Source: a virus (taxonomy: Duplodnaviria > Heunggongvirae > Uroviricota > Caudoviricetes). Taken from it: 30,850 nt of DNA. Under the pieces are notes generated by a model, which searched no databases, was not told the origin of the DNA, and was given only the letters and a program-made list of their open reading frames with translations. The position numbers and the translations under genes are program-made. How positions within the stretch are numbered: the first letter of the stretch is position 1; the number at the start of each line of letters is the position of its first letter. The stretch is from the IMG/VR virus record IMGVR_UViG_2917875804_000003; one strand, written 5' to 3'. Below, piece after piece: positions 697-28,734 of this stretch.

Positions 697-1336
697 ATGG
701 ATATAAAAATGGACATATTTGAAAAGGGTAAGCTACTGTTATTTGTGCTTTTCATCATGCCCGGCTTTATTAGCATGAGAGTTTACAGACTCTTTCACCC
801 ATCTGCGGATTCTGACACTTCAAAAATTCTGATAGATGTAGTTTCTTATAGCTGCATAAATTATGCATTCCTATTAATACCAATATATCTAATTGAAGAA
901 AATGATATATTCCTTACTAGTCCAATCCTTTATTATTTATTTTATTTCTGTGTATTAATAGTTATCCCTGTACTACTACCTATGTTTTTAATATTTATTC
1001 GCAACTGTGAAATGGTCAAACGTTTCCTACCTCACCCTATTGGGCGTTCATGGGACTACTTTTTTTTCAACCAGACAATGCTGTTGGGTGCTGGTTACAC
1101 TTAAGAATGGTAAAAAATATGGTGGCTATTATGGTAGTGCTTCATTTGCATCAAGTAGTCCCGAACCGGAGCAAATATATCTAGAAAAACATTGGGCACT
1201 AGATGACAATTGTGATTTCGATCACGAACTAACCGATACATTAGGGATAATTATATTGACTAATGAAATAGAAAGTGTTGAATTTATTAAAGTACATAGT
1301 AGTAATCCTAGCAAAAGTGAGGCTGAAAATGGTTGA
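697..1336 (+). CDS. hypothetical membrane protein with C-terminal soluble domain, interrupted by a frame change in a T8 run (1060-1067)
   Basis: ORFs 658..1104 (hydrophobic, several predicted TM segments) and 1007..1336 join into one ~210-aa frame if the T8 run is read as T7. First ATG at 697. Confidence 0.4.
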
Positions 1337-1517
1337 AGATAAACCTGCTAACAATACAAGAACTATCCACGATGGCTGGCAACCTGTAGAAAAAGGTTAC
1401 CAGCCTACAAGCAGGCCAGACCAACAAAACAATGGCTACCAACCACCACGCCAGACCCAGCAAACCCAACATATTGCTCCGCCACCTAAAAAAACGTTAG
1501 TTAAAACCAGTTGTTGA
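1329..1517 (+). CDS. hypothetical small Gln/Pro-rich protein (62 aa)
   Basis: ATG at 1329 preceded by GAGG; low-complexity sequence with repeated YQP; may be spurious. Confidence 0.2.
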   Translation: MVEDKPANNTRTIHDGWQPVEKGYQPTSRPDQQNNGYQPPRQTQQTQHIAPPPKKTLVKTSC

Positions 1518-2154
1518 TGCCACAACTGATAAATTTCAGTTTTGAAATCATACACAAAGTATGTACAGCCCGCGTAGTTCCTATCTTCACGGGCTTCATG
1601 TTCTCATAACCATTCAGCACGAAAGTATCCTCCCCCTCCCGCATAAAACTAAATTACCAATTAAATATCAACACGGTAGAAACTTCATCATATCCACCGT
1701 CGATCCTTTCCACTGAAAAATACTGAAATTCTTTTCCATCTTTTCAGTTCACGTTAGCCACTAATCTCTCAGTAATGACGCTGTCCGTGTTGGTGGTTTG
1801 AAGAAAAAGCAAAATGAAAAAATTTTATCGATCCAGAAACCGCAGGCGGGTGCGGTGTAGCGCCGTTTTTGTCTGCGAAGGATTTATTTTGTCACCATAT
1901 CACCATACCAGCGCAACGCTACAATTCTGATCTTTTATACTTAGTGACCGAGTTATATTTGTTATTAAAGGGTTAATAATCCGTCTGCAGATGTCTATGA
2001 CAAGATAAGAAAGATGTTTTGTTAGTAATTCAACTAATTATTTGGGATTAAGTAGCCAATTATCAGTTCCGACCACATAACTTAATATTGTAGGCAGAAA
2101 ATCAGATCATTCTCATGTTACGATAATCCTCAGGATTATTAGGGAGAATAATTT

Positions 2155-2752
2155 ATGAGTAACAACAAAAAGTCTCATTATGAGGATATGAAGAAGTTGT
2201 TGTGCGCGGACATACTGCACAGCAGTAAAAAAATTCTCCTGGAGGAGAATCATACTACGTTGCTGGAGACAACCCGGACACAGATTCATGTGTTGGTGGA
2301 GGATAGCGAATTGCCTTTACTGTCAGGGAGGGAAATCAAGTATTAAGTGGGCACGAAGAATCCACCGGAGACTTGTTTCAAAATACAATACTGATATTGG
2401 ATTGGGGGCACAGATCGGGGAAAAATTCAAAATTTATCACTTCGTTGGAATAGTCATTTGTCCCCAGGCTGTGATTGGAAAAAATGTTCGTATCCGACAA
2501 AACACAACGATTGGATTAAAAACAGTTGAAGGAATCAAAGCCATCAGGATCGGAGACAATGTCGAGATTGGCGCAAATTCATGCATCATCGGTGATGATC
2601 TGACCATTGGTGATAATGTGACAATTGGTGCTATGTCATTCGTTAACCGAAACATTCCTGCCAATAGTGTCTTTATAACCCGCAGAGCCGCACAACTACT
2701 ACCGCTTGATACGCACTCCACCTCTAACTATCTTGAACTACACAACAACTGA
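2155..2752 (+). CDS. hexapeptide-repeat (left-handed beta-helix) acetyltransferase, WcaB/CysE-like; apparent frameshift near 2320-2346
   Basis: ATG 2155 with GGGAG RBS. C-terminal frame (2288..2752) has tandem [LIV]G-x-x-x-x hexapeptide repeats (IGDNVEIGANSCIIGDDLTIGDNVTIGAMSFV) that align by eye with the serine/colanic-acid acetyltransferase fold. N-terminal 63 aa are in a different frame. Confidence 0.55.
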
Positions 2753-2806
2753 AATACTGCTATCAGCAAGTCCAGAACGTTTCAACTTATCATGTGAGTG
2801 TCAGCA

Positions 2807-4510
2807 TTAGGCAATAATCACCTGATATTTTTCCCGGGTCTGCCCGGCTTTCGTCCCTGTCTGGGTGAACGCGGCGGCATTGGTTGGCATCCCAACGGAG
2901 GGATGAGAATGGCTCGCACATAGCTGCGCCAGCTCTTCCAGTAAATCAATGGTGTCCAGCATCATGGTCAGGGCGTTGATACTCTCACTGCCAATATGGA
3001 CAGTTGCCCCCATGACCTGCTGACCTCCAGTGGCTACTGATTTACGCAGTGCTGCAATCTTCTCTGTCAGGCTTTCGCCAACCTCCACGACTACAGCACC
3101 CCCCACTTTAGTGGACTGCAGTCCTGTTATGTCCGTTTCTTCGTTTCCTTCAATACTGGACAGCCTGTTACCTTTCACCGCCTGGCTATAATCACCGGCG
3201 CTGACCTGCTGGATGGCTCCAGCCAGCAATATGGCGGTTCCCAGTACCGTAGTTTTATCCGTAGCTTTCACCGCGGTTTCACGGCTGACCAGTTCGCGCT
3301 GTTCCGTATCGGCTTTTACCGTTCGCACCATCGATGTTTCACTGATGGTCTGATCGGTCTGCCTTACCCAGTCTCCAGCCTGAGTCACCCTCTGGGATAC
3401 TTCTTCCCGCTGCTGCTGCAATTGCTCACCGGGTTTAACGTCCGGCAGGCTGGTACCATCCGGCAGCGTCTGCCTGATAAAGGGTTTATCAGGTCTGCCT
3501 CCCGTGAATGCAACCTCAACCAGCGTCCCTTCTGGCGGAAACTGAAACATACCTGAATCATTCCCAGCCATCGGTACTGGCAACGGCACCGCTGAATAAA
3601 CAGGTGTCTGATTGTCCGGGTTTCCGTCTGCGTCAAGAAGCTGCACGTCCACGGCGTAACGTGGTCGGAAGGGATCGGCAAAGTTACCGCTTTTTACCGG
3701 CTCTGAATACGCCACGACTCTGGCCATCTTTGGCAAATGAAGCCCAGATGCCAGTTCAGGGTAATGGCTTTCAATCTGCCTTTGTGCCGGTGTTTTCTGC
3801 AAAGGTTTACCCGTTACGCGGTTTCTCGGCATCCATGTGATCGCCATCGTGTCATTCGTCAGATGAACCTTAGTCACGCGTTCACCGTTCATCTCCACCC
3901 CTGGCCGCATAGTCTGGATCACTGGTAATGTCACAGAGTTACCGCCAGCGGCCCCCTGGCTGAACTCTGATGGGATTTCTACGGGACGACCGGCAAACAA
4001 TGACTTTTCTGCGCCACCGACGTAAAGCGAACCATCAGGAAACTGGTACCAGATGTAATCCTGGATACTGAACGCCCTTCCCAGATTGTTCAGCAACTGA
4101 TAACCAGTACCGTTATGGGTAAAATGTGGGATAGGGGTATCGCTGTACTGTGCGTCAGGCACACTGACCGTGATCCCGCTATTTTCTTCCAACCAGACCG
4201 CAATTTCACGCAAAGTCGGGTGTTGAAACGAACATGGCCACATCCTTTCAAACACACCTGCCAACTCACGAATGAACAGGCGCTGAAAACCGTTTTCAGC
4301 GGGCTGCGATCGCTCCACATACCCCGTAAACCAGCGCAAAAGCAGATCGGTATACCCCACATCCAGCCTCACCAGTTTTCCGGTGTAATCGGTTGTTGTC
4401 TCTGCGGTGATGAAGCCCCGGCCGCAGCTGTTCAGCTCCAGTACCAGGCTGGCATCCACCAGGTGAACTTCATCCGTTGAAAGGTATAGGCGTTTTACTG
4501 GTTTCATCAT
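2807..4510 (-). CDS. baseplate central spike-like protein (gpV/gp5-type OB-fold) with N-terminal extension, 567 aa
   Basis: Internal segment VDVQLLDADG...FPPEGTLVEVAFTGGRPDKPFI matches the conserved spike OB-fold signature (PxxGxxVxVxFxxGdxdxPxI). C-terminus has an SHSHP motif like the metal-binding apex of P2 gpV. Last gene of the tail operon; GC like the phage core. Confidence 0.5.
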   Translation of the reverse strand: MMKPVKRLYLSTDEVHLVDASLVLELNSCGRGFITAETTTDYTGKLVRLDVGYTDLLLRWFTGYVERSQPAENGFQRLFIRELAGVFERMWPCSFQHPTLREIAVWLEENSGITVSVPDAQYSDTPIPHFTHNGTGYQLLNNLGRAFSIQDYIWYQFPDGSLYVGGAEKSLFAGRPVEIPSEFSQGAAGGNSVTLPVIQTMRPGVEMNGERVTKVHLTNDTMAITWMPRNRVTGKPLQKTPAQRQIESHYPELASGLHLPKMARVVAYSEPVKSGNFADPFRPRYAVDVQLLDADGNPDNQTPVYSAVPLPVPMAGNDSGMFQFPPEGTLVEVAFTGGRPDKPFIRQTLPDGTSLPDVKPGEQLQQQREEVSQRVTQAGDWVRQTDQTISETSMVRTVKADTEQRELVSRETAVKATDKTTVLGTAILLAGAIQQVSAGDYSQAVKGNRLSSIEGNEETDITGLQSTKVGGAVVVEVGESLTEKIAALRKSVATGGQQVMGATVHIGSESINALTMMLDTIDLLEELAQLCASHSHPSVGMPTNAAAFTQTGTKAGQTREKYQVIIA

Positions 4511-5055
4511 TAACCCAAAGCATCATTGACGGGCTTCAGTACCTTGCGTTCAAACCACGTCAGTTTTTCTTCATCTTCTCCGGCAGACTGGCCACCGGAC
4601 TGTCCCGCACTACCGGCAGTCTGTTTTTTTGCGGTCGTCTTACCTGTTGCCCTAGCCTCTTGCTTTTCCTGCACGCTGATATGTTCCGCCAGTGTGAATG
4701 TCACCAACCAGGACATCTTCCCGTCCTGCTGGGGTGCATCCACCGTTCCGCTGAACGTTGCTTCACGAAAGTTAACAGCACGGGCAACTTCATGCACCAC
4801 GCGATATTTCTGACGATTACCACTGGCATCGGTAGTACTGGCCAGCTCAAAAATACGCTTTAGTACTTCAGGCTGTTTAAAAGGTATTTCACCGCTGATC
4901 CGCAGTTCCTTTCCCTTTGCTCCCTGCTCTGATTTTGTTGTGGCACTGGTCTGGCCGGACTGATCTTTATCCTGAAATTGCTGTGAAACAGTCACCCGCA
5001 TGTTTTTCAGCTGGATGGCCTCGCCATTAAGCGCCAGTGTCGGGATCGAAGTCAT
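4510..5055 (-). CDS. hypothetical tail/baseplate-associated protein (181 aa)
   Basis: ATG 5055 with AAGGGA RBS inside the 3' end of the upstream gene; sits between fibre assembly gene and spike; no recognisable motif. Confidence 0.4.
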   Translation of the reverse strand: MTSIPTLALNGEAIQLKNMRVTVSQQFQDKDQSGQTSATTKSEQGAKGKELRISGEIPFKQPEVLKRIFELASTTDASGNRQKYRVVHEVARAVNFREATFSGTVDAPQQDGKMSWLVTFTLAEHISVQEKQEARATGKTTAKKQTAGSAGQSGGQSAGEDEEKLTWFERKVLKPVNDALG

Positions 5056-5752: not shown

Positions 5753-6329
5753 TTCCAAGTATCTCCGGCCATACAATTTGCGGCGCATCTTCCGGTTGAA
5801 TACGGTTCAGTAAAACGCGGTATTTTTTCCAGGCGGTAAGCAGCAGTGCTTCTTCTTCGGTCGCCATGTCTAAATCAACGGCATCCTGCAATGTGGCAAT
5901 AGCGTCATTGGCCTGTTTAAGTAGTCTTTTCTTTTCGGCGTCTGCCTCGCTGACTAATGCAATTCGCATGGCATCCGCATCATCCACCCACGTCTTACCA
6001 TTCCATTTTTGCCAGGCATTAGCCGGTGCTAACGTGGTTGTCCCTTCCGGGTAAGCGCCTGGCTCGGAGATCACCAGTTCATTACCGTTTTCTGTATCAA
6101 ACAACACCTCACCACGATGATCCTCACGAGAAACCCATTTTTGCTTCTCTGAATCATAAATTGCCACAAACCCCGCTTTTATTACCGGTGGTTTTATTGT
6201 GGTGCAGTTGGCTGGCAGTCCGGTATACGCAGGTATAAAAGCGTCACCCAAACCAATAAATTCATTCGTGTCAGAACGCAGGTTATAAACGGTAACTGTT
6301 TGATCCGTTTCACTCATTTTAAAAGTCAT
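5742..6329 (-). CDS. tail fibre assembly protein (Tfa / gpG-like chaperone)
   Basis: C-terminus ...LQDAVDLDMATEEEALLLTAWKKYRVLLNRIQPEDAPQIVWPEI is the classic Tfa signature; immediately downstream of the tail fibre gene (TAATG overlap). Confidence 0.8.
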   Translation of the reverse strand: MTFKMSETDQTVTVYNLRSDTNEFIGLGDAFIPAYTGLPANCTTIKPPVIKAGFVAIYDSEKQKWVSREDHRGEVLFDTENGNELVISEPGAYPEGTTTLAPANAWQKWNGKTWVDDADAMRIALVSEADAEKKRLLKQANDAIATLQDAVDLDMATEEEALLLTAWKKYRVLLNRIQPEDAPQIVWPEILGNVA

Positions 6330-7904
6330 TATGCGAGTCTCACTATGTAGTTAAATACGATGTTTTTAACGGTCGTTTCTTCATTGCCCGACGCGGCGAC
6401 AGTAATGGTGTGACTGTGTGCGCCTATTGCTACGGTATGAGAGTGAGCTCCAATTCCTACAGAATGGCTATGTGCGCCAATCCCTACAATATGAGCATGG
6501 TTGCCAGCCAAATCCGTATTACCAGTTGTTACGTTATCGCCACCCTGACCTCTATTGATATCTCCGTTTTGAGTGGCCTGCCCCTTAACATATGTATGAG
6601 TATGTGCACCAGTTGTATCGGTTGTTTTGGTTCCGTAATCAAATGTGCTCACAGCTCTAGTGCCGTAGTCAAAGGATGATGTTGACTTCGTCCCCAGATC
6701 GGTACTGAATGCACTAGCGGTGTGGGCATGGGATTTATTGCCATCATCTTCATAGGACAAAACTGCACGGCCATCAGGTTTTCCTTTGATCGTCTGGCGG
6801 CGCATATCAGGAAGAACACCCGATGGGTATGCAATAGCCAGTCGCTGGTAAGCCACTGGATCAAACACCTGCCCCTGCATGATTGCGTGACCCGCTGGTG
6901 GAATATCAGTCGGCCAAGGAAATGGTACTCCAACCGGCACAACATCGCTAATGCTTAAGACCGCCAGCTCACCCAGCCCAAGATTTTTTCTGGCTTCCGC
7001 CTTGTCATTGATATCGGCAAGGTTTGCATCCTTACGCAAAAAATCGCTGCTGGCCTGTTGATCGCTCAGACTGCCTTTTGGCCTTAAATCCGTGATGTTG
7101 CCATCCACATCAATGCTGGCCACCGCAAATACAAAATGCTGAATACCGTTCTGAACATAATCAGTCAGATTTTCTACAACCGTGACTTTACTCTGTACAC
7201 TCCAGACACTGCTCAGAATCCCTGTCCAGCACACATCCAGCCAGACTTTTACCGACTTTGTCGTCACTGTAATATCCTGATTCGCATCCAGTGACACACG
7301 CAGTCCAGCCACATACCCCGTGCCTTTCGTGACATAAAACTGATTGCCGGTTTTGGCTACCAGATACCCGTTACCAAAAAAACGCCGCCGCGCCATAAAT
7401 ATCTGTATTTTCCAGACGCTGGCGCTCATCAATTCCGGCCAAACGTGCAGTAAAATCAATCTGCCAGGTTTCAGCGGGCGTATTAATCCCAGTTTCTGTT
7501 TGTGCACCGTTGTACTCCATCAGAAACGAGCGGGTCAGCACGTTCCCCTGTTGCCCTTCTTTTGTTTTCAGTTTCTGCTGTGCTGGTGCATGAACAATCA
7601 TTGCCAGCGTACCGCTGGCCTTATTGAGCAGACCAATCCAGTTAAAACTGAAATCCCCCACATCTGCGCCCAGCACTACGGAATAGACCACCCTGTTTTC
7701 ATCCACCACACCGGTACGGGTAACAGCTTGCCGGTGAACAATCTGTGCTGTCGGGGGCAACCCTTCATTGCGATCAACAGGGATATCCGCGTTTAAATCC
7801 GGCACACTGGCAAAAACAAATTCGTCCAGTAGTACCGGTTCACCTGTTGCGCCCTGCTGTGCTTTCCAGTTTTCAAACGCCAGTGTGATGGCTGTCTGTG
7901 ACAT
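6329..7904 (-). CDS. tail fibre protein, reading frame broken at an A7 run (7376-7382 on + strand; T7 in the coding sense)
   Basis: ORF 7371..7904 (conserved fibre N-terminus) and ORF 6329..7507 (distal part with HxH repeats) fuse in frame (...[19 protein letters not shown]...) if the run is 6 nt. Followed by Tfa. Confidence 0.75.
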
Positions 7905-7914
7905 AAAAATCTCC

Positions 7915-9679: not shown

Positions 9680-10023
9680 AAATCCACCTGCGCAGAGATC
9701 CCACCAAAATCGTATGTACTCGCGGTTACCCACAGCCGCTTCTGACTTTCTTCACTGATTTCCACCGTACCCGGCACAATGCGTTCATCATATTCAATCA
9801 GTAATTCCATACGGGTAAAAATATCCGCTCTCATTGTCGGGCTACGTTCGGCTATTAATTCCGTAGCCAAACCACTTTCAATAATGGAATGAATAATGTC
9901 CTGCCCGATGCTTTTTCGGTTATTACATAATTCAGGTTCATTACCGGTATTCAGAACAAAATCACCGCCCTGAATCAGCAAATCAATATAAAGAACATTA
10001 CTCATGCACCAAGCTCCTGCCAT
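9676..10023 (-). CDS. baseplate protein, gpW/gp25-like
   Basis: 115-aa ORF immediately upstream of J-like gene and coupled to it; size and position match gpW (115 aa in P2). Confidence 0.5.
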   Translation of the reverse strand: MAGAWCMSNVLYIDLLIQGGDFVLNTGNEPELCNNRKSIGQDIIHSIIESGLATELIAERSPTMRADIFTRMELLIEYDERIVPGTVEISEESQKRLWVTASTYDFGGISAQVDL

Positions 10024-11968
10024 TCCATAAGCTGGAGTGGAGAAAATGCTTCTTTGGTATGGAAATGCACTTCACCAATTTTCCGGCTGTTATCGATTAC
10101 AGATGTTGTGTTGCTGCTGATTGTTTTACTGATACCACCATTATCCACACCTTTTAAATCGCCCCCCGTAGACAGCGTATTACCAGTTAATGGCTGTAAG
10201 GTTTCACTGGCCAGAGAAATATCCACGCCGGGAATTTCATTCAGTTTCTGAACAATCCAGTTCCACGACTTAAGAAATCCCTCTTTGATTGAGTTCCAGA
10301 CAATATCAAACAGCGACATAATACCGGTGGCCATTCCCTTTAATGCCTCAGATGGCGAAAATCCTGTCAGCATAGAAATGAAGCTGTTCCATCCATCACT
10401 GACATATTGCCAGGCTATAACAAAGATCCCCGCTAGCCATTTCACTACGGCAGCGCATACCTGAAAGGCTTCGGTATTCATCACCGATGCTTTTATCGTG
10501 TTCCAGTGCTTAACCAGCAGATAACAACCAGCAACAAGCAGCGCAATGGCACCAATCACAAGCAGGATTGGCCAGCTCATCAGATTGATACCAATTCCGG
10601 TCATCATTGCGGCCATGCGTACCGCCAGTAACGCGCCGCGTAAAAACTTCAGCGTGGTATTCCAGGCGATTACCGCCATTTGCGCCAGCCAGACAGTCGC
10701 CGTGTAGATTTTCGTAACCGCCGTTAACGCCCCCCAGATCCCACGTAATCCCATCATGATGAATCTGGATACCCCCATCACGATATTGCAACCGCACCCA
10801 CGGCGGCAAAGCTCAGTAGTGCCACCGACGCATAACCAATCACACGGGCAATGTTAGGAAACAACTGCATCCAACGAGCAAAGGTCTGCCCCATATCAGC
10901 CAGGCGATTCAGAACCGGATACAGCACCGGGATCAGCGTCAGTCCGATCACGGTCTGAATGGCTTTCAGGATTTGTACAAAGCGATCCCACGGCTTAACC
11001 ATTTTTTGTGCCATTTCCTGGGTACGCTTCAGGCCGTCCGCGCCGCCCAGTTCGGTGATGTTCCGCTGAAGTAACGCGACATTGCCGTAAAGATGTTTAA
11101 CCACTGCCGAACTGTCACCAAAGGCTGCATCCAGCTCCGCCTGGGCTTTCAGGTTCCCTTCAAGGCTTTTGCCATATTTGCCCTGCAACTTGATCAGCAT
11201 TTCAGGCATGGACAGCATTTTGCCGGTGGAGTCAGTAAAGGACAGCCCCAGCTTTTTAGCGCCATCAATCGCGCCGGTCATAAATCCTTCATAGGCGCTG
11301 CTGGCTTCCGTTCCCAGCGTCCGCTGAAGTTGCCCCAGCACGGCCAGCTGTTCATCCAGCCCCACACCGTAGTTAGTCCCGACGCCGCGCGCACCTTCCA
11401 TCAAATCCTTGATAGTGGCCATTTCTGTGCCAAAGGTTTTGCGCATATAAACCATCTTGCCTGCCAACTGCTCGGCAAATTCCACCTTGCCCAGTCTGGC
11501 GGCATCGGCGGAAAAGTTACCGAACATCTGCCCCATAAATTCCGCCGTGTCCGCCGCTGTGGACTTGAGCGCAAACGCCAGGGTATTGGCGACTTTCGTC
11601 ACCTTCGGCAGTTCATTACCCGTCAGTCCGGCAATGGAAGCGTTAATATTTTCCGTGGATTTAACAAACTCCACCGCACTGGCACCATAGGTTGTACTAA
11701 AGCGCAGGGCATCACGCTGAACTGTCTTAAGTGCTGAATCATCAATACCTTTTGCGGCAGCATCATTCAGCGCGTCATACATTTCAATTGCCGGTGATAA
11801 AGCACTTTTGATCTCCATCCCGATGCCTGCCAGCGCCAGAACGCCACCACCGATCTGCATAAAGGCTGCTTTTGATTTTTCCGCAAAGCCGGTGACGTTA
11901 CCTTGCACCTGTTTTAACGGGCGGGATAATTTATCAATCAGGCTTAATGTAAAATCTAATTGTTTCAT
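10002..11968 (-). CDS. tail tape measure protein, encoded as two overlapping ORFs (10778..11968 and 10002..10781) with a frame change at a GTGATG junction
   Basis: N-terminal ORF is long, helical and Ala/Gly-rich; C-terminal ORF is a hydrophobic multi-TM segment typical of tape-measure C-termini. Sits directly after the chaperone frameshift extension. Confidence 0.7.
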
Positions 11969-12416
11969 TCATTGCCTTTAAATGCTTTTGCCACACCATT
12001 GGCCACGGCTATTCCCGTATATTCCCAGTGACGATTGTCCAGCCAGATAGCGGCGGCGATATCATCAACGGAATCCTGACCATGTGGTAAATAATGACGG
12101 CGTAGAATTAAATATTGTTCGAGTCCATTCATTTCAATTTCATGGACTCGCTTTGTCAGTTTTTTACTTCAATTTCTAGTTCAGGCGCATAAATATCATT
12201 TACTTTGCCAACCAGTTGAAGTGCAGCACCCGGACGTTTTAATACTTCACAAAGTGAGGCTTTACTTTCAATCGCAACAATTCGTGTCAGATAGTTATGC
12301 GCAGGAGCAACCTTATTGTCCATTGCCATTTCATTAATAAATTTATTGTAGGCAGTCTGGTTTGGTTCAAAAATAATTTCAACACCACAAACACACAGTT
12401 TAATTTGTTCCATCAA
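11965..12416 (-). CDS. tail assembly chaperone with programmed -1 frameshift extension (E/E'- or G/GT-like)
   Basis: 86-aa ORF 12156..12416 ends ...GAA GTA AAA AAC TGA. The -1 frame after the slippery A-AAA-AAC stays open for ~64 codons and stops at a TGA overlapping the tape-measure ATG (11966-11968). Confidence 0.6.
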
Positions 12417-12697
12417 TAACTCTCTCTTAAAATAATTTCATCCACTAACTGATTATGACGTGCAGCACACTGACCATATAACTCAAGATAAATCGTCAGT
12501 AATTCCGCTGAGTCTTTTCCTGTCGCACCATTCAGGCGCGGCAACTGCGTGGCACATTTAGTTTTCAGATTTTCCTGATAACGCACGTTCGGTACCGGTT
12601 GCGGCACGGTTGTACATGCTGACAAACTCATCAGACAGGCAACGACTGGTAAAAACAGGCTTAAGCACTTCAGTGCGTATCTCTCGCGGTGCCACAT
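12413..12697 (-). CDS. o-spanin-like outer-membrane lipoprotein (Rz1-like)
   Basis: Signal peptide with lipobox LSAC (...LFLPVVACLMSLSACTT...); overlaps the 3' end of the i-spanin candidate in another frame. Exact start uncertain. Confidence 0.55.
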   Translation of the reverse strand: MWHRERYALKCLSLFLPVVACLMSLSACTTVPQPVPNVRYQENLKTKCATQLPRLNGATGKDSAELLTIYLELYGQCAARHNQLVDEIILRESY

Positions 12698-12897
12698 TTT
12701 TTTAACGCCTCCAGTTTATCTTCCAGCGCTCTGGCCGAATCACTGGCAATACCCTGCATTGCTTTTCGCGATTCAGTACCGGCCACCTGCGCCGCTGTAT
12801 TGATTGCCAGCTCTAAGCTATCACGCCGCCAGTCAGCGGTTAGCCAGCCCCAGACAAACGCCAGCGCCACCACAACCAACCACTGCCCGCTGCTCAT
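12670..12897 (-). CDS. i-spanin-like protein (Rz-like)
   Basis: 75 aa, N-terminal TM segment (WLVVVALAFVWGWL) then charged helical region; directly downstream of the endolysin. Confidence 0.5.
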   Translation of the reverse strand: MSSGQWLVVVALAFVWGWLTADWRRDSLELAINTAAQVAGTESRKAMQGIASDSARALEDKLEALKKCGTARDTH

Positions 12898-13527: not shown

Positions 13528-13536
13528 CCCTGCCCC

Positions 13537-16820: not shown

Positions 16821-16865
16821 AAGGTGTTCTGCCCTCCACCGCGTCCGCCTGGCTTGCGGTAGTCT

Positions 16866-17567: not shown

Positions 17568-17570
17568 TTA

Positions 17571-18608: not shown

Positions 18609-18655
18609 TTAAGCGATTTAAAAATATATTCTGGGCTAATTAGCAATAAAGCGAA

Positions 18656-19459: not shown

Positions 19460-19621
19460 ATCCCCCCCTGTTCCACTCCCTGACGCTGCAAATCAATTAT
19501 TGCCAAATAAAACCACCACCGCATTACGCTTTATTCTGAACAGTTCGGTTATAACGCTTTACCGAACAGACACGAATTAACACCACCGTTTTTTCATCAC
19601 AGCCACGGCATAATTATCCGC
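19460..19621. promoter_or_regulatory. divergent late promoter region between scaffold O and terminase P
   Basis: ~160-bp intergenic region between divergent operons; contains an imperfect dyad (GTTCGGT ... ACCGAAC, ~19531-19556) that could be an Ogr-type activator site. Not verified. Confidence 0.3.
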
Positions 19622-22455: not shown

Positions 22456-22505
22456 TGCGAAACTGGCTAAAATCCATGCTTCATTTAACAGCGGGAGCAT
22501 GGAAT

Positions 22506-22775
22506 ATGCGAGTTCTGAAAATCGAATGCCCGGAATGCGGCTCAAAGGCTGTTATTCGTAAAACGAACAGGAAGCACCGACAAATTGCGGATATTTACTG
22601 CGCCTGCTCAGATGTTGAATGTGGCCACACATTTGTTATGAATCTGACATTTTCCCACACTCTTAGCCCCAGCGCTAAAACGGGTGATGCGGTGGTGCAA
22701 AAAATACTGAGTGCACTTTCTCCCGCTCAGCGCCAGGTGGCATTCGATTTACTGAAAGTGACTCCCGCTGCCTAA
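22506..22775 (+). CDS. ogr: Ogr/Delta-family zinc-finger late transcription activator
   Basis: MRVLKIECPECGSKAVIRKTNRKHRQIADIYCACSDVECGHTF: C-x2-C ... C-x4-C zinc finger typical of P2 Ogr / 186 B; ATG 22506 with GGAG RBS. Confidence 0.75.
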   Translation: MRVLKIECPECGSKAVIRKTNRKHRQIADIYCACSDVECGHTFVMNLTFSHTLSPSAKTGDAVVQKILSALSPAQRQVAFDLLKVTPAA

Positions 22776-22810
22776 AAAGCCCCCAGAATGAGGGCTTTTC
22801 CCTTCCTTTT
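22776..22810 (+). terminator. rho-independent terminator after the ogr-like gene
   Basis: AAAGCCC-cagaatga-GGGCTTT hairpin followed by a T-rich tract, directly after the stop at 22773-22775. Confidence 0.7.
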
Positions 22811-23081
22811 TAACCATTTTGTGAACCTCTTCCGCAAGTTCTCCAATCCAGGCCAAAGCGATTGTTTTTTTCTCTCTGGTTACTTTCGTAATCATGGGCA
22901 ATTTTAGCTAATAATTCAATGCGTTCCAGCTGTGCCGACGCCTCCAAAAGATCCATTTAGCCCCCACAAGCAATAGTGACTGGATAAGTATCCAGTATAC
23001 CGTACACCGTAAAGCACGAATAGTGAAATTTAATTTCCTTCCATCTACTGAGAAATGCATGCATTTCACATATTTACCCTG

Positions 23082-25103
23082 CTAGACCCACCCCGGCCAT
23101 AACTCGTTTAATGGCTCGTTTTGAATCTCTTTAAGCCACCCATTACGGTAAACCAGTCCCCCTTGGCCAAACATCAAACCACTACCCCGCAGGAGAATGG
23201 CTATTTCTTCATTAGAACCGTTAAAACCCCGACTGCATAATTCCAGTTTTAACCGTCTGAGGATTCCCCCCTCCGTACAGTTATTGACAGAACTCCAAGG
23301 GGCGGCGTTGCCGCCAGAAAACCCCGCCTCCGCTGGCGCTTCGGCCAACTTCGCAACCTTTTGCCACTTAACCAGACGGGTGCAAACTTCCGAATCAGGA
23401 ACCAAAGGAGAATAAACCCCCTGTACGCGCTGCACGTCCTCTGCGTACTCGTTGCCCTGTTCCGTAATTTCATAGGCCAGACGAACAACCAGATCACGGC
23501 GGGCAACCAGTGCACCGCCCTGCGCCTGGGTATATGCAGCCCAGTCCCCGACATCAGCAGCGGCCAGAACCGCATCCATTCTGCGATCGGTCAGCACCTG
23601 ATCCCGCAACCGACGCAGCTCACGCCAGACACTTACCGGCGCACCACCAATCTGCTGAAACTGACGAATACGCCAGCGTGAAGCCCATGCAGAAACGGAC
23701 TTAGCCATATCACGCAGGTTTTCGCCGGTTTCTTCGTCCTGCTCACCATCCAGCGCAAAACCATCAATATTTTTTGAAATGTATTTCGCGATGTAGCCCG
23801 TGGCCGAACCTTTGGCGGGATCGATAACTTCAACATGAAAACGCGCCTTCAGCGCCTTTTCAGATTGCAGTTCTTCAGAATCGGTAATTCTGGCGTGATA
23901 GCAAAGAATATCGCGTACCGTGTCCACGTCATGCGGACGCATAAAAAGCAACATATGCCAGTGCGGTGTCCCGTCATGGTGAGGCTCAACAACCCGAAAC
24001 CCAAATACATGAATACCCGCACGCGAGATCGCTGCGCGTGCTTTTGCCCATACGCCGCATAAATAGCGCTGGGTATCCTGCGGTGTACATCCATCCCATT
24101 GCGATACAAAGCCACCTTTGCTGTGCACTGCGTGGAAACGTGATGGCGCGGTGATGGTGTAAAACTCACCGGCCAGCCCTTCTTCATTGGCCATATCTTC
24201 AAACCCTCGCATTCTTACCATTAGTTCACATCGACGGATCGCCGGATTTGCAATGCTGCGGTGCACCATGCTGTCCAGTGCAATGCGCAGCCCCTCATCA
24301 TTCAGCAGATCAAACTTTTTAAAGAACTCCAGATTCCGCTTTTTCTGGTCTATCCATTCGTCCAGTGTTTTGCGGGATACATAAGCGCTGGCCGCTTTTT
24401 GTACCTGTCCCACCGCGATGGCCATATGTTCGCGCTGCATATCACGCGCACGTTTAAGACGTAGGTACCACCATTCCGGCGCCATCATGCGCAGTATCCC
24501 GGATTCCGCCTTACGCATTTCCAGTTGACCTTCATTGGCCTCATGTTCAGCCCAGTACGGCGGCTGGTTATTCAGCATCAGGCAACCCGCGCAAAGATGG
24601 CGGTATGATTCCAAGGTGCGGCGATGCAGCTCTCTGGCGTCGTCAGTGCCGGAGTCAAACTGTTCGGTGAAGTCATAAAGTGACTGGGAAATCCAACCAG
24701 ATACCTGGCCAGCCAGTTTTTTAAGATCAGGACGGTCTAGTGACGGCAAGCGCTCCAGCGACTTACCAAAAGTAAGATCAGCAGCGTCAGCGGCCAGCGA
24801 GTAACGCGCAGCCACTTTGCGCAGACGTGGCAATACACTCCCGCCGATAGTCTGGCGCAGGAATGTATTGGCACGACAACGCCCGTCACGACCAGCAAAC
24901 AGCTTTTCGTAACGACGGCCAAAATACCCGGCTAACCAGTCGGGTATCTCATGCAGGTACCGGGCTCTCCATTCATAATCCTGCGGATTTACAGCCCACA
25001 AACGGCGTTCTGTGATTGTCGCGTCTGCCGGTATGCAAGATGCGAAAGTTTCACGCCGCCACGTATCGACAGCATAGAAGTGTTCCTTTATAGCCAACAT
25101 CAT
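23082..25103 (-). CDS. A: replication initiation protein A (rolling-circle HUH endonuclease, P2/186 gpA family)
   Basis: 673 aa with HUH motif (GTPHWHMLLF) and catalytic tyrosine motif (TGYIAKYISK); last gene of the early operon. Confidence 0.9.
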   Translation of the reverse strand: MMLAIKEHFYAVDTWRRETFASCIPADATITERRLWAVNPQDYEWRARYLHEIPDWLAGYFGRRYEKLFAGRDGRCRANTFLRQTIGGSVLPRLRKVAARYSLAADAADLTFGKSLERLPSLDRPDLKKLAGQVSGWISQSLYDFTEQFDSGTDDARELHRRTLESYRHLCAGCLMLNNQPPYWAEHEANEGQLEMRKAESGILRMMAPEWWYLRLKRARDMQREHMAIAVGQVQKAASAYVSRKTLDEWIDQKKRNLEFFKKFDLLNDEGLRIALDSMVHRSIANPAIRRCELMVRMRGFEDMANEEGLAGEFYTITAPSRFHAVHSKGGFVSQWDGCTPQDTQRYLCGVWAKARAAISRAGIHVFGFRVVEPHHDGTPHWHMLLFMRPHDVDTVRDILCYHARITDSEELQSEKALKARFHVEVIDPAKGSATGYIAKYISKNIDGFALDGEQDEETGENLRDMAKSVSAWASRWRIRQFQQIGGAPVSVWRELRRLRDQVLTDRRMDAVLAAADVGDWAAYTQAQGGALVARRDLVVRLAYEITEQGNEYAEDVQRVQGVYSPLVPDSEVCTRLVKWQKVAKLAEAPAEAGFSGGNAAPWSSVNNCTEGGILRRLKLELCSRGFNGSNEEIAILLRGSGLMFGQGGLVYRNGWLKEIQNEPLNELWPGWV

Positions 25104-25149
25104 ATGCTGGCCTCAAGAAGCGATGGCGAAGGACATTTTAGTGGTGTTT

Positions 25150-25383
25150 TTATTGCCATGCCGCACCGCCTTTGCTGCAAATAGCCTCGGCCTCTTCTCG
25201 GATCAACTCAACGATTTCCGCTGCGCTTAAACCTTCATTTGCTGCATGAGTGGCCAGCTTATCCAGGCGGATGGAACACAGGTCAGCAACTGCGGCTTTA
25301 CCTTCCTGCGTGGCTTTAGCAAGCATGTCCAGTAGATCAGTACCAAGCTTTGTTGCGGGTAAATCCTGATGTGTCATATACAT
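25150..25383 (-). CDS. hypothetical early-operon protein (~78 aa)
   Basis: ATG at 25383 with AAGGGA RBS (ORF track 25150..25434); immediately upstream of gene A. Confidence 0.4.
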   Translation of the reverse strand: MYMTHQDLPATKLGTDLLDMLAKATQEGKAAVADLCSIRLDKLATHAANEGLSAAEIVELIREEAEAICSKGGAAWQ

Positions 25384-25450
25384 TTTGGGTTCCCTTAAGG
25401 CAAAAGAATCCCCGGCCACTTGAACTGTGACCAAAAATTCAGACAGTTAA

Positions 25451-25852
25451 TTAGTGAAAATGGGTTAGTACTGTGGCGGCTGAATAGTTCGGTGCCGGAA
25501 TCAGATGCAGCTCATAGGTTGTCTGCCACCACTCCTGGATTATTGATTTTATCTCGCCAACACCCAGCGCCCCGGCTGTATAGAAAATCGCGCGAATCCC
25601 TGCCAGCGCTTCGATCTGCGCATCTTTGCTCTGTGCTTCGCGGTACACGCAGCACCAGAAAGCGGCATTAATAGCTAACCAGTGGCGCAGATTCATCATG
25701 TGTTCGGCGTCATTGAAAAAGAAAGGATGCAAAGCGATGCGACCATTTTCACTGGTGTTTTTCGCTGCAAACGATACAACATAGATATGAGGGACGCCCC
25801 ATACAGCGAGTTCTTCCCGCAACGATTTACCCTCAACGGAAATAATGGTCAT
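25451..25852 (-). CDS. hypothetical early-operon protein (133 aa)
   Basis: Same strand and operon as cII ... A; no recognisable motif. Confidence 0.4.
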   Translation of the reverse strand: MTIISVEGKSLREELAVWGVPHIYVVSFAAKNTSENGRIALHPFFFNDAEHMMNLRHWLAINAAFWCCVYREAQSKDAQIEALAGIRAIFYTAGALGVGEIKSIIQEWWQTTYELHLIPAPNYSAATVLTHFH

Positions 25853-25863
25853 TAGTGATTCCT

Positions 25864-26280
25864 CTATTGCTGGAACTTATGGACGATATGAGGCGCGATC
25901 ACCATCTGCACCCCACTATTACTACAAATTGGATGTGCTTTTTTTATTGGCCGATTCGCGGTACGTTTCGAAAAATCGCTGTCACGTAAACTGCCAAAAC
26001 CGTCAAATGTTAATCGCGCCCGTGATATCCCCTGACGCAGTTGAATCATGTACCGATAGCCCAGGCGTTCATAAATCTCCCGCCAGCAGCATTTGCATAA
26101 ATGAGCTTTAAATACTCTGGAACCTGAAGTAATCGCAGCAGCATGAAGAACCACACCGCGCCATTCTGGTGTTAAGTCGTCCCACCATTCAGCGGCCTTA
26201 CTGCTTTCGCTGAAATATTTACGGCGGATCTGTTTTAATTGCTCAAGTCCACGCTTTTGCTGTTCCTGACTAATCGCCAT
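25864..26280 (-). CDS. hypothetical early-operon protein (138 aa)
   Basis: Same strand and operon; basic, with a CKCC cysteine cluster; no family assigned. Confidence 0.4.
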   Translation of the reverse strand: MAISQEQQKRGLEQLKQIRRKYFSESSKAAEWWDDLTPEWRGVVLHAAAITSGSRVFKAHLCKCCWREIYERLGYRYMIQLRQGISRARLTFDGFGSLRDSDFSKRTANRPIKKAHPICSNSGVQMVIAPHIVHKFQQ

Positions 26281-26309
26281 AGCGCCCTCTTCCCACCGTG
26301 CTGTGATAG

Positions 26310-26492
26310 TTAACGATCAAAGTTGAAAGACAGACGACGGACAAGACGTGGCGCGCGACAAAACGGAACGTCCAAACAAGAGTGATTGTGAAACCACACG
26401 CGCCCGCGTTCATCTCCCTGGCGGCTACTTTCTAGATGGCGCTTTATGGTGAAATACACTATCGTGCCGCTGGTTTTTTTAGGCTTGCGCAT
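26310..26492 (-). CDS. hypothetical small protein (60 aa)
   Basis: ATG 26492 with AAGGGGA RBS (ORF track extends to 26615 without RBS support); contains an A7 run, so frame is uncertain. Confidence 0.25.
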   Translation of the reverse strand: MRKPKKTSGTIVYFTIKRHLESSRQGDERGRVWFHNHSCLDVPFCRAPRLVRRLSFNFDR

Positions 26493-26509
26493 ATTATTCC
26501 CCTTTAGAT

Positions 26510-26683
26510 TTATAACCCCATCAAACGCCACCACCACGGGCGGCGCTGTTGCTGGCCATTGAATTTGTACATGTGACCGGGGTTCCAACGCTGCCCGTTG
26601 GGCAGTTCTATCCAACCCGTTGATCCACTTGGCAACTGCATTGCTGGTGATTCATTTTTCAGGTAGGTGGCAAACGCTTTCAT
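26510..26683 (-). CDS. hypothetical small protein (57 aa), in the fil/dhr-equivalent position of 186
   Basis: ATG 26683 with GGAG-type RBS, directly downstream of cII; below the ORF-track size cutoff, found by manual translation. Confidence 0.3.
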   Translation of the reverse strand: MKAFATYLKNESPAMQLPSGSTGWIELPNGQRWNPGHMYKFNGQQQRRPWWWRLMGL

Positions 26684-26692
26684 AGTGCTCCC

Positions 26693-27196
26693 TCATATCA
26701 GGCCGGTGGCATTGATTGTGACCAGCGCTACCGCAGCGGCCAGGACGGGCGTAGAGTGAAAACGACTTTCCACGGTATAAGCCAGCACGGATAAGCTACG
26801 AATTGCATCGCGGGCGCGATCCAGAATTTGAGTACGACGAGCGGCAGTCATATGGCAAGTTGATACGGCTTCCCCAGCAATCGCCCCCACGCACGCAGTG
26901 GCGCTTAGAGCACACAGTTGCATGTTGCCTTCAGTGGCATTATTCACAGGCACGGATGGCAGGCAGTTAATTTGGCTTAACATCCCATCCAGTAAACGTG
27001 CATCTTCGGTGTAATCCGTAATGGATATAAGCTCATCGCATGTTAAACGGTGCGGTTGCGCTGGATTTAGTTTGTTGCGCAGGATCTGCGGCCTTATACC
27101 AACGGCAACAGCCACATCTTCAAGATTGTGCTCAATTGCAAATGCTCGGCAAGCCGCATCAAATCGCGCATGTTTAGAGATCTGGTAATCAAACAT
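26693..27196 (-). CDS. cII: CII-type transcriptional activator (phage 186 CII family)
   Basis: MFDYQISKHARFDAACRAFAIEHN...LRNKLNPAQPHRLT...CLPSVPVNN closely resembles 186 CII as I recall it; 167 aa; follows Apl/Cox. Confidence 0.75.
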   Translation of the reverse strand: MFDYQISKHARFDAACRAFAIEHNLEDVAVAVGIRPQILRNKLNPAQPHRLTCDELISITDYTEDARLLDGMLSQINCLPSVPVNNATEGNMQLCALSATACVGAIAGEAVSTCHMTAARRTQILDRARDAIRSLSVLAYTVESRFHSTPVLAAAVALVTINATGLI

Positions 27197-27226
27197 TGTT
27201 TGCCTCTCGCTAATCCGTAGGATGAA

Positions 27227-27448
27227 TTACGCGTTAAGTGAAATATCACATTCACTTAAAGCCTGAATGGTTAGCGCGGCCATGTTGACCTCAACCAGGC
27301 CTTTCTTCTGCTTACCCTTAGGTTTAATGGGCAATTTCCCGTATTCGATCAGATTTCTGGCAGTTTCTTTGTTTGTACCAGTACGACGGCAATATTCGTC
27401 TAAAGGCAGGTAAGGTTCCGGTATGATGATTGTAATGCTCGGACGCAT
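27227..27448 (-). CDS. Apl/Cox-like excisionase / Cro-type regulator
   Basis: ~74-aa product from ATG 27448 (GGAG RBS); first gene of the operon divergent from cI; small basic DNA-binding-like protein. Confidence 0.55.
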   Translation of the reverse strand: MRPSITIIIPEPYLPLDEYCRRTGTNKETARNLIEYGKLPIKPKGKQKKGLVEVNMAALTIQALSECDISLNA

Positions 27449-27567
27449 AAGGCAAACTCCATTAGTCAACCTGTACGGTAATACAGGGCTGTAACTGTCA
27501 ATATTCACTTAAACCTACAAAGCAGAGTTTAAACTCGCTTTGAGAAAGATTTCAAGGAAAAATTTTC
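27449..27567. promoter_or_regulatory. lysis-lysogeny switch region (divergent promoters and operators between apl/cox and cI)
   Basis: Intergenic region between divergent regulatory genes; contains CTGT-N8-ACAG dyad at 27471-27486 just upstream of apl. Confidence 0.5.
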
Positions 27568-28148
27568 GTGAAACTACAAATTGAATTTTCTCATGGCGGA
27601 TCAGAAGTCTTGGACAGAGTCATCCAGGCGTATGGTTTCAACACAAAATTAGCCCTGGCCGAACATCTTGATATAGCAAGTAGCAGCCTGGCTAATCGCT
27701 ACAAGAGGGATTTTTTTTCCAGCAGATATCGTTGTTAGATGCATGGCTGAAACGGGAGCAACTCTGGAATGGCTTGCGACTGGGCAAGGAAGAAAGTTTA
27801 ACGATGACGAATTAGACATCATGAAACTGCCGCGTAAGAAGATTGTGGACGGAAAACTCTATGATTCCGGTTTGCTAATGCTCGATAAGGTTACTTTTTT
27901 ACCTGGTAAGCCTTTACCACAGAATCCAATCTGTGTGATTGACAACGCAATGCAGTACATTGTTGATCAACACTTTCCCGAAGTTTACGACGATGATTGG
28001 TTAGTTGAAATTGAAGGAAAAACAAGTGTGAGAACCCTTACGCGCATCCCCGTAGGCAAAGTTCGAGTGAGTGGCGTTGGGATGGCATTTGATTGCGCTA
28101 TCGAAGATATAAAAAATTTTAGGTCGTATTATCTTAACTATAAAATAA
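27568..28148 (+). CDS. cI: CI repressor, phage 186 CI-like; frame interrupted twice at homopolymers (T8 27711-27718, A6 28111-28116)
   Basis: GTG 27568 with AAGGA RBS. With one base removed per run the product (~190 aa) reads VLDRVIQAYGFNTKLALAEHLDIASSSLANRYKRDFFPADIVVRCMAETGATLEWLATGQG ... WLVEIEGK ... DIKILGRIILTIK, paralleling 186 CI end to end. Confidence 0.75.
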
Positions 28149-28162
28149 TAAGGAAAATTATA

Positions 28163-28734
28163 ATGATAGATTACAAGACTGCATCTAAAGACCAATTAAA
28201 AGTAGAAATGAAACGATTGTCCGCCGCTGTTTCAGATACGCCATTTGGTACAAAAAAAAGAATTTTTTCATCTTCCCGAAGTTTTAAACACCGGCGAGGA
28301 ACCGCTTGGCATAGTAAGCGGTATGATGGATGGCAACACCTGGTTAATAACTTTAACTAACCAACGCGTTATCTTCCTCGATAAAGGGATGATATTTGGT
28401 GTTAAGCAGGTCGATATTAGCCTTCGTAACATTGTAAGCGTTGGCGGAAAGACTGGACTGATATTTGGTGAGATAATGATTTCAACAAGTGGACAGAATT
28501 ACACCATAAAAAAACGTTATAAAATCCTCCGTAATTCCTTTTACCAACCTTGTTAATGAGACAAGGAATAGTCTGGACAAGCCACAAGTTATCACCGCTC
28601 CTACAAGCTCCAACGAAAAATCTTCATTTGATGATGTCATGGATAAAATTGAACGTTTGGCTGAAATGAAAGCAGAAGGCATTCTTACTGAAGAAGAATT
28701 TCAGCAGCAAAAACAACGCATTTTAAACAGCTAA
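28163..28734 (+). CDS. cargo protein with bacterial PH-like domain and SHOCT-like C-terminal motif; frame interrupted at A8 (28252-28259) and A7 (28508-28514)
   Basis: ATG 28163 with AAGGAAA RBS. Middle frame ...LPEVLNTGEEPLGIVSGMMDGNTWLITLTNQRVIFLDKG...GEIMISTSG... has a bPH-like pattern; C-terminus ...DKIERLAEMKAEGILTEEEFQQQKQRILNS resembles SHOCT. AT-rich relative to flanking cI and int. Confidence 0.5.

Follow-up and report, generated by a model that had tools for sequence, protein, structure and literature searches.

A prophage in which the repressor, the tail fibre and the cargo genes all carry broken reading frames poses a simple question: is the element decaying within its host, or has its sequence been misread? 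The stretch of DNA considered here (the window; 30,850 nucleotides, IMG/VR record IMGVR_UViG_2917875804_000003) raises this question repeatedly along its length. A first-pass annotation, made from the letters alone, listed six frame breaks in runs of A or T, and all six homopolymers are indeed found at the positions and lengths that it gave. Each coincides with a change of frame relative to homologous proteins or DNA, and removal of a single base at each of the six restores one open reading frame. The accompanying statement that at least six genes are broken was, of course, an overcount. Between them, these sites affect four genes, encoding a DUF6338 membrane protein, the tail fibre, the cI repressor (broken twice), and a bPH/SHOCT protein (broken twice).

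The origin of the sequence bears directly on the question. The window is 100% identical to part of PDIC01000004.1, a contig in the draft genome of Escherichia cryptic clade II strain E4208 (GCA_004745305.1). This draft (PDIC00000000) was built from Ion Torrent data only, using single-end reads of 35-400 bp at about 45x coverage, assembled with MIRA and SPAdes (PMC6639607). In Ion Torrent assemblies, homopolymer indels are known to create frameshifts, with errors that grow with run length and are worst for adenine (PMC12046094). We are very confident that the frame breaks are base-calling and consensus errors of this draft, and are not mutations.

Comparison with closely related prophage copies, which the first-pass annotation had proposed as a check, supports this answer. 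The host belongs to cryptic clade II of Escherichia, and for this reason the 5,426 complete E. coli genomes contain no near-identical copy. Exact-protein look-ups were the route to the decisive comparators. Two assemblies, GCA_005781195.1 (locus L011) and the Logan assembly of SRR8835205 (loci L008 and L013), hold the same prophage together with its host flanks. Over all 30,850 bases, they differ from the window by no substitutions and by exactly 16 single-base indels. Fifteen of these are one surplus base in a homopolymer of the window (14 A/T runs and one C run); the remaining one is a G lost from a GG pair. Once these 16 edits are made, the window is an exact substring of both assemblies. 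These two may come from the same laboratory, and they may themselves be of Ion Torrent origin. More distant relatives from other laboratories' data (ESSI2_ev015, ev040, and ev129, three complete E. coli genomes, and one Salmonella phage) carry the reference run length at all 16 positions. A G missing at position 154 relative to E. coli LR778152 was also considered as an error and was rejected; it is common to all three clade II assemblies, and is therefore a difference of lineage.

A third comparator, the Logan assembly of SRR6148339 (L010/L016), overlaps the window at two loci and covers 8 of the 16 sites. Here again there are no substitutions, with 10 run-length disagreements across the two loci. 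Five of the extra bases in the window are absent from it, and three errors occur in both (2227, 10787/8, and 12697); the other 13 window errors are reproduced in no other assembly. Five further deletions in short runs are peculiar to its contig (AA to A, CCC to CC, T6 to T5, TT to T, and GG to G), where they disrupt the capsid and baseplate genes, and the ends of that contig fall within two of the disputed A runs.

The first-pass list was correct as far as it went (sites 1060, 7376, 27711, 28111, 28252, and 28508) and incomplete; every other site described below is an addition. At the left end, all affected genes are on the plus strand. The DUF6338 gene is split at 1060-1067, where T8 stands for a true T7. 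Both L011 and L013 have T7, and locus L004 has the 7-nt TTCTTTT. The corrected gene (709-1336) encodes 208 aa and matches the DUF6338 profile at positions 7-202 of 205. A small ORF (1329-1517) has its C-terminus altered at 1488-1494 (A7, true A6), where a form of 56 aa ending in PPPKKR gives way to a longer product. The run at 1817-1822 (A6, true A5) lies in no called gene and is probably intergenic. A hexapeptide-repeat acetyltransferase gene is split at 2227-2233 (A7, true A6, as in phage ev040). Its corrected form (2155-2752) encodes 198 aa, compared with the 116 aa called in the source, and gives a near full-length match to Hexapep and phrog_2154.

The tail and lysis region is affected on the minus strand. 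The tail-fibre gene is split at 7376-7382 (A7; A6 in ev015, ev040, ev129, L011, L013, and L016), and its corrected form (6329-7904) encodes 524 aa. The tape-measure gene (10002-11968; 655 aa when corrected) is broken into ORFs of 396 and 259 aa where GG at 10787-10788 is read as G. Loci L003-L006, L011, and L013 have GG; the loss of the G is common to SRR6148339. The gene for an Rz-like spanin (about 12558-12897) is split at 12697-12703 (T7, true T6), and its corrected 112-aa product matches phrog_1152 over residues 5-112. The only G/C run affected, C7 for a true C6 at 19462-19468, is intergenic and lies between the genes for the scaffold and the large terminase. At 22865-22871 (T7, true T6), the error truncates a hypothetical gene of 68 aa (22749-22956, minus strand).

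On the plus strand of the lysogeny region, the cI gene is broken at 27711-27718 (T8, true T7) and again at 28111-28116 (A6, true A5). The second error replaces the conserved tail of the repressor, ...DIKILGRIILTIK followed by the stop, and makes the frame run on into the gene that follows; four relatives keep this tail. A tblastn search with the cI of one relative reads through position 28111, as if no break existed. This extension proved spurious, and the break is confirmed by inspection of the C-terminal sequence and by DNA alignment with two outside homologues. The corrected gene (27568-28148) encodes 192 aa with Phage_CI_repr and Phage_CI_C domains. The restored tail fibre likewise has its Phage_tail_fib and Collar domains, so that both proteins match the families expected of them, as had been claimed.

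The bPH_3/SHOCT cargo gene that follows is also broken twice, at 28252-28259 (A8, true A7) and, inside the bPH_3 domain, at 28508-28514 (A7, true A6). At the former, L008, Salmonella phage S.Kent, and E. coli EC22 have one base fewer. The corrected gene (28163-28734) encodes 189 aa matching phrog_2700 over residues 1-189, with the bPH_3 profile (1-95 of 95) spanning site 28508. Two over-calls, A5 for a true A4 at 29748-29752 and A6 for a true A5 at 29759-29764, replace the tail of the integrase (...LKCRKNVAAA followed by the stop) so that its ORF (28738-29826) has 362 aa in place of 346. The second of these falls within the attR core proposed at about 29754-29769. The 362-aa frameshifted integrase is on record solely in the source assembly. 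The host gene opgE (start 30347, plus strand) is broken at 30803-30809, where T7 stands for the T6 seen in E. coli L004 and L007 and in L008; its product is cut from 527 to 167 aa, and an exact look-up of the truncated 167-aa protein found no record.

With the 16 bases corrected, each of the eleven affected genes is whole again; the eight restored proteins that were checked against family profiles match Pfam and PHROG families end to end. What remains is an ordinary and apparently complete ESSI-2-like prophage (Peduoviridae, P2-type) between mntR and mntS. It occupies positions 1-29769, the window starting about 265 bp inside its left end, and a 15-bp att core repeat is found. Downstream are host mntS (29948-30076) and then opgE. 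Genes for baseplate, fibre, tape measure, sheath, tube, head, scaffold, terminase, portal, replication, lysis, and lysogeny are present. Proteins of ev015 are matched in order in 36 of 39 cases, homologous proteins align over their full length without stops, and the ESSI2_ev phages share 93% nucleotide identity with the prophage across the tail region. Three genes are cargo (the DUF6338 membrane protein, the hexapeptide acetyltransferase, and the bPH_3/SHOCT protein), and PADLOC assigned their products to no known defence family.

This has consequences for the view, offered in the first-pass annotation as the alternative should the breaks be real, that the prophage has decayed and may be locked in because structural genes were lost. 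Every structural gene of ev015 has a full-length counterpart here, except a 65-aa ORF annotated "L33" among the head genes. Relative to the intact copies, there are no nonsense changes, no larger deletions, and no substitutions. That view is not sustained.

The distribution of the errors is instructive. Over 39.6 kb of the source contig the differences number 20, all of them indels, and 19 are +1; substitutions are absent. There, the fraction of A/T runs over-called rises with their true length, from 0/922 at 3 nt (0%) through 2/319 at 4 nt (0.6%), 4/114 at 5 nt (3.5%), and 8/43 at 6 nt (19%), to 4/7 at 7 nt (57%); for G/C runs in the same 39.6 kb, 1/8 is over-called at 6 nt. Within the window, all 15 insertions are in runs of at least 5 nt, which make up 2.8% of its bases. 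The chance of this is about 0.028^15, or roughly 6e-24, and the clustering in homopolymers is far beyond chance. Nor do the errors respect gene function. They strike conserved host genes (the 5' end of mntR, and opgE twice, the second time 1.5 kb past the window's end) as well as intergenic DNA, at 19462 and probably at 1817. The first-pass remark that direction and context are the same everywhere holds, by our tally, for 15 of the 16; the C run at 19462 and the deletion in the GG pair at 10787/8 depart from it. Its reading of the breaks as homopolymer over-calling is supported by the Ion Torrent source, the identical assemblies that lack the extra bases, the length-dependent rate, the host genes affected, and the frameshifted integrase unique to the source. 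As a separate observation, G runs on the plus strand are far rarer than C runs. Strand-specific dropout was considered as the cause and rejected; relatives are equally asymmetric, implying a natural coding-strand bias.

The identity of the source, its platform, the exact list of differences, the dependence on run length, and the restoration of every gene are direct observations. The mechanism proposed from them is as follows. On the Ion Torrent platform a homopolymer is recorded as one flow signal, whose power to resolve run length falls as the run lengthens. With single-end reads at about 45x, the consensus from MIRA and SPAdes retained a surplus base in 15 runs and dropped one from the GG pair. 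Each miscount shifts a frame, leading gene callers to report fragments or pseudogenes, and in the real DNA the cI, integrase, tail, and lysis genes are intact. We further infer a functional prophage, and disagreement in run length between individual reads at the affected positions. The 15:1 bias toward insertion exceeds the roughly mixed profile of insertions and deletions usual for the platform, and a consensus rule of the assembler may be its cause.

Other readings must, of course, be weighed. One grants that most breaks are artefacts while holding that the A7 at 2227, the G loss at 10787/8, and the T7 at 12697 are genuine mutations of E4208 that leave its prophage tail-defective. These are the only lesions common to the window and to L010/L016, and the change of GG to G is not a long-homopolymer error. 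If SRR6148339 is an independent isolate, the three could be real strain-level mutations, or could be systematic context errors. However, SRR6148339 is probably Ion Torrent data from the E4208 project, possibly the identical reads, in which case errors held by a majority of reads are expected in both assemblies. Further, the five short-run deletions in the L010/L016 contig make short-run under-calls typical of such data, and substitutions are absent throughout. This reading is improbable. Were it true, the E4208 copy would be defective in tail and lysis while its clonal siblings are intact, a case of very recent domestication masked by sequencing errors.

It is far less credible that all the breaks are real, +1 slippage having pseudogenised the prophage and the adjacent host genes, for example in a mutator deficient in mismatch repair. 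Mismatch-repair defects do elevate indel rates in mononucleotide runs, and a single direction at 15 sites could point to a biased process. But mutators gather many transitions, and here 39.6 kb offers its indels with no substitutions; at the observed density the whole genome would bear roughly 1,500-2,400 frameshifts, a load incompatible with viability. The platform accounts for the pattern, and SRR6148339 contradicts the window at five sites. Still less weight can be given to the idea that the runs are phase-variable contingency tracts, caught by the assembly in an OFF-state subpopulation. Changes in homopolymer length do drive phase variation in many bacteria (PMC8808543). The affected runs, however, lie scattered in intergenic DNA and in the coding regions of unrelated genes (the repressor, the integrase tail, the tape measure, the spanin, and host opgE); tracts 4-7 nt long are on the short side for efficient switching, relatives are invariant in length at these tracts, and the probability of a hit tracks run length alone. 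Least probable of all is that the window is correct and the comparators are under-called. Under-calls do occur in related data (L010/L016), but in every case it is the shorter run that yields an intact, full-length ORF matching its family, and the shorter runs are found as well in unrelated assemblies from several laboratories.

Base-calling and consensus error in the E4208 draft is thus the reading that we adopt, and it brings no new biology. The finding is an ordinary one, mainly a warning about data quality. In A/T-rich regions of GCA_004745305.1, a spurious frameshift occurs roughly every 2-3 kb, and the same is probably true of the sister Ion Torrent drafts that this project produced. Pseudogene counts, calls of prophage intactness, pangenome and cgMLST analyses, and surveys of frameshift or decay will be misled if this assembly is included. 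A search for frame breaks that recur in A/T runs should begin with a check of the platform and a comparison with sequence-identical copies.

How does this case compare with known systems? Flow-based homopolymer errors (Ion Torrent PGM, 454) are alike in their length-dependent single-base miscounts, with A runs worst, and in the spurious frameshifts and inflated pseudogene and CDS counts that result. Flow errors at the level of reads go both ways, however, whereas here nearly all are +1 (15/16 in the window, 19/20 in 39.6 kb), and the consensus step is probably behind this bias. Cryptic prophages, such as the defective ones of E. coli K-12, likewise have fragmented repressor, tail, and cargo genes. 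Real decay, in contrast, leaves missense and nonsense changes, deletions, and IS insertions, and its lesions are passed on to descendants; this prophage shows no substitutions and no loss of structural genes, and its lesions are missing from identical copies. The truncated prophage of E. coli strain 573 (L007) is an example of real decay at the same locus.

Programmed -1 frameshifting (E/E' of P2, G/GT of lambda) also involves a change of frame at an A/T run in a phage tail operon. A candidate site for it is found at 12159-12165, at the conserved chaperone position and identical in all assemblies; none of the 16 error sites resembles it. The corrected element resembles the ESSI-2-like phages (Quadragintavirus ev015, ev040, and ev129; Cronobacter phage ESSI-2). 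These have the same gene order and 85-100% protein identity through the baseplate, tail, lysis, head, terminase, replication, and lysogeny modules, with the integrase adjoining att and with variable cargo slots. By comparison, the prophage here is without the dam methylase, DUF3850, and exonuclease module, and its cargo differs, with bPH_3/SHOCT between cI and int, and with DUF6338 and the acetyltransferase at the left end.

Searching for exact copies of the portal and baseplate products brought up contigs of three kinds. One, PDIC01000004.1 (GCA_004745305.1), is 100% identical to the window, and is therefore its source. In the second, comprising GCA_005781195.1 and two contigs of Logan SRR8835205, every gene is unbroken: tape measure (655 aa), tail fibre (524 aa), spanin (112 aa), cI (192 aa), bPH_3/SHOCT (189 aa), integrase (346 aa), OpgE (527 aa), DUF6338 protein (208 aa) and acetyltransferase (198 aa). 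Over its whole length, the window has no substitution relative to these intact copies and differs from them by exactly 16 single-base gaps. At 15 of these (1060, 1488, 1817, 2227, 7376, 12697, 19462, 22865, 27711, 28111, 28252, 28508, 29752, 29759 and 30803) a window homopolymer is one base too long, the run at 19462 being of C; at the other, 10787/8, a G has been lost. The first-pass annotation had proposed comparison with closely related copies as a check. Here, a 16-base edit turns the window into an exact substring of the intact assemblies. Look-up of the 362-aa frameshifted integrase gives the source assembly only, and exact look-up of the truncated OpgE finds none on record.

That annotation had named six runs, T8 at 1060-1067, A7 at 7376-7382, T8 at 27711-27718, A6 at 28111-28116, A8 at 28252-28259 and A7 at 28508-28514, and all are present. 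The E. coli prophage LR778152 (95% identity) has a 7-nt tract opposite the T8 at 1060, and A6 against the window's A7 at 1488, a run missing from that list. In CP102853, another E. coli prophage, T7 stands opposite the T8 at 27711, and comparison of the integrase gene's 3' end adds two more +1 differences that had not been listed. An indel census of the whole window against five relatives, with a protein-level frame map, bore out the breaks in the DUF6338 gene, the tail fibre and cI, but found the gene list incomplete; the tape measure (lost G at ~10788), the Rz-like spanin (T7 at 12697) and host opgE (T7 at 30803) are broken as well. A tblastn extension through 28111 suggested an unbroken cI. 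This was ruled out by the corrected C-terminal tail, ending in DIKILGRIILTIK and a stop, which is kept in the cI of four relatives; the fourth listed site is thus a true break.

Such breaks might come from over-called homopolymers, or from the decay of a prophage that the loss of structural genes had locked in. The former, the annotation's main reading, is upheld by the 0 substitutions and 16 single-base gaps against intact copies, and by an Ion Torrent source. The latter finds no support in the gene content. The structural, lysis, replication and lysogeny genes of phage ESSI2_ev015 have full-length counterparts in the prophage, with one exception in the structural region, a 65-aa ORF, "L33", among the head genes; otherwise only the non-structural dam, DUF3850 and exonuclease module has no counterpart. 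No lesions other than single-base run changes are present in the prophage. All 16 sites are, almost certainly, artefacts.

A narrower form of decay is raised by the third kind of contig, SRR6148339_28 (Logan SRR6148339), whose run number would fit the BioProject of the source strain, E4208. It covers window positions 1489-28115 with 0 substitutions, and both its ends lie inside disputed A runs (1488-1494 and 28111-28116). It is without the window's extra bases at 1817, 7376, 19462, 22865 and 27711, and has in common with the window the errors at 2227, 10787/8 and 12697, so that these three lesions might be real in E4208. However, it also has five single-base deletions of its own in short runs (3437, 3743, 15788, 16492 and 18033; runs of AA, CCC, T6, TT and GG), which break its baseplate, neck, head-adaptor and capsid genes. 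These spurious AA-to-A, GG-to-G and TT-to-T deletions speak against the three lesions being real, which we consider very improbable. The pattern is that expected from noisy run-length data assembled two different ways. The frame breaks are no real biological feature, and their sole significance is as a quality warning for the source assembly.

The platform is documented. The PDIC00000000 genome is that of E4208, an Escherichia cryptic clade II strain isolated in Hong Kong from intertidal sediment; it was sequenced by Ion Torrent only (single-end 35-400 bp reads, 45x) and assembled with MIRA and SPAdes to give 4,762 CDS in 4.69 Mb (PMC6639607, Table 1). From that table, CDS density can be calculated as ~1,016 per Mb, versus 910-931 in three 100x genomes; this is consistent with genome-wide gene splitting, the trend across strains being loose. 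Frameshift-causing homopolymer indels are documented in Ion Torrent assemblies, where errors grow with run length and adenine is most affected (PMC12046094).

The source contig has 19 over-calls and a single under-call in the 39.6 kb compared, made up of the window and its fetched flanks. Runs of true length 3 nt were over-called in 0/922 cases for A/T and 0/542 for G/C; at 4 nt the counts are 2/319 and 0/111, at 5 nt 4/114 and 0/30, at 6 nt 8/43 and 1/8, and at 7 nt 4/7 for A/T, with no G/C run present. Eleven of the 14 window runs of at least 7 nt are over-calls. All 15 window insertions lie in runs of at least 5 nt, which make up 2.8% of window bases; random placement would do this with a chance of ~6e-24. 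Contigs L012 and L009 supplied the over-calls outside the window. Host opgE is over-called twice, at 30803 and, 1.5 kb beyond the window, at 32282 (T7 versus T6). At window-equivalent -480, T8 replaces T7 in the 5' end of mntR, which is called as 143 aa instead of 155, and the mntR-prophage spacer holds A6 versus A5 and T5 versus T4 (-360/-352).

At all 16 positions, one or more sequences from other laboratories have the reference length (the shorter run at the 15 over-calls, GG at 10787/8). This length is found in LR778152 at 1060, 1488, 1817 and 22865; in phage ESSI2_ev040 at 2227; in ev015, ev040 and ev129 at 7376 and 12697, and in these and LR778152 at 10788 and 19462; in CP102853 at 27711, 29752 and 29759; in Salmonella phage S.Kent 1-2-1 and E. 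coli EC22 at 28111, 28252 and 28508; and in two E. coli opgE genes at 30803. Once restored, the proteins match their families along the whole length: cI (Phage_CI_repr and Phage_CI_C), bPH_3/SHOCT (bPH_3 profile 1-95 of 95, across site 28508, plus SHOCT; phrog_2700 over residues 1-189), tail fibre (Phage_tail_fib and Collar), DUF6338 (profile 7-202 of 205), acetyltransferase (Hexapep and phrog_2154), a PhageMin_Tail protein and spanin (Rz-like, phrog_1152). Public comparators, of course, have lesions or errors too; the baseplate gene of E. coli SC477 (NZ_LR778152.1, 4003-5707, homologous to window ~4289) is annotated "frameshifted" and has one C more than the window and the other relatives.

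Two frame changes in the window are of another kind. At 12156-12167 on the minus strand, where ORFs 12156-12416 and 11965-12159 join, the tail-assembly-chaperone gene (Phage_TAC_10, 85 aa) ends in GTA AAA AAC TGA. From its A AAA AAC heptamer a DUF6890 frame runs on at -1, and the tape-measure gene lies just downstream. The T6 run at 12160-12165 is the same in all assemblies, and this is therefore a genuine frame change rather than an error; it looks like a conserved programmed -1 frameshift of the P2 E/E' type. A hypothetical protein of 165 aa in LR778152 is represented at window 1-350 by two ORFs, of 57 and 60 aa, owing to a single G missing at 154. This loss is common to three clade II assemblies (the source, GCA_005781195.1 and the SRR8835205 contig L013) and, unlike the other breaks, is probably real, a frameshift or pseudogene peculiar to the lineage.

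The element itself (49% G+C) is an ESSI-2-like, P2-type prophage (Peduoviridae), with ~93% nucleotide identity to Escherichia phages ESSI2_ev015, ev040 and ev129 in the tail region. It is flanked by host mntR and mntS/opgE, a site that related E. coli prophages also use. A 15-bp direct repeat, TGTCGCAAAAATGTC, which we infer to be the att core, has one copy 265 bp left of the window and another at ~29754-29769, where it overlaps the 3' end of the integrase gene; the two copies differ within the source assembly because the attR copy has one spurious A. The element is an ordinary prophage of ~30 kb and is apparently complete.

Cargo slots vary among relatives. Here, a DUF6338 membrane protein and a hexapeptide acetyltransferase are encoded at the left end (709-2752), and a bPH_3/SHOCT protein between cI and int (28163-28734). 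A PADLOC search of the cargo proteins gave no match, and their PHROG families are of unknown function. Equivalent slots in relatives hold an AIPR abortive-infection protein (CP102853), an "abortive infection family protein" (ev040) or serine acetyltransferases. E. coli EC22 and phage S.Kent likewise have a bPH_3/SHOCT protein between cI and int, and PH-domain homologues occur in many Staphylococcus phages. Between the replication gene and DUF2732, ESSI2_ev015, ev040 and CP102853 carry a module of dam methylase, DUF3850 (RNA-binding) and 3'-5' exonuclease, whereas the window is without it (25076-25153); tblastn with the three proteins found no matches. In E. coli strain 573 (NZ_CP102853.1, 27468-28230), where a related prophage also occupies the mntR-mntS site, a deletion has fused a tail-protein remnant to a truncated replication endonuclease, and all head and most tail genes are gone. 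That prophage is truly decayed, and serves as an example of real decay at the locus.
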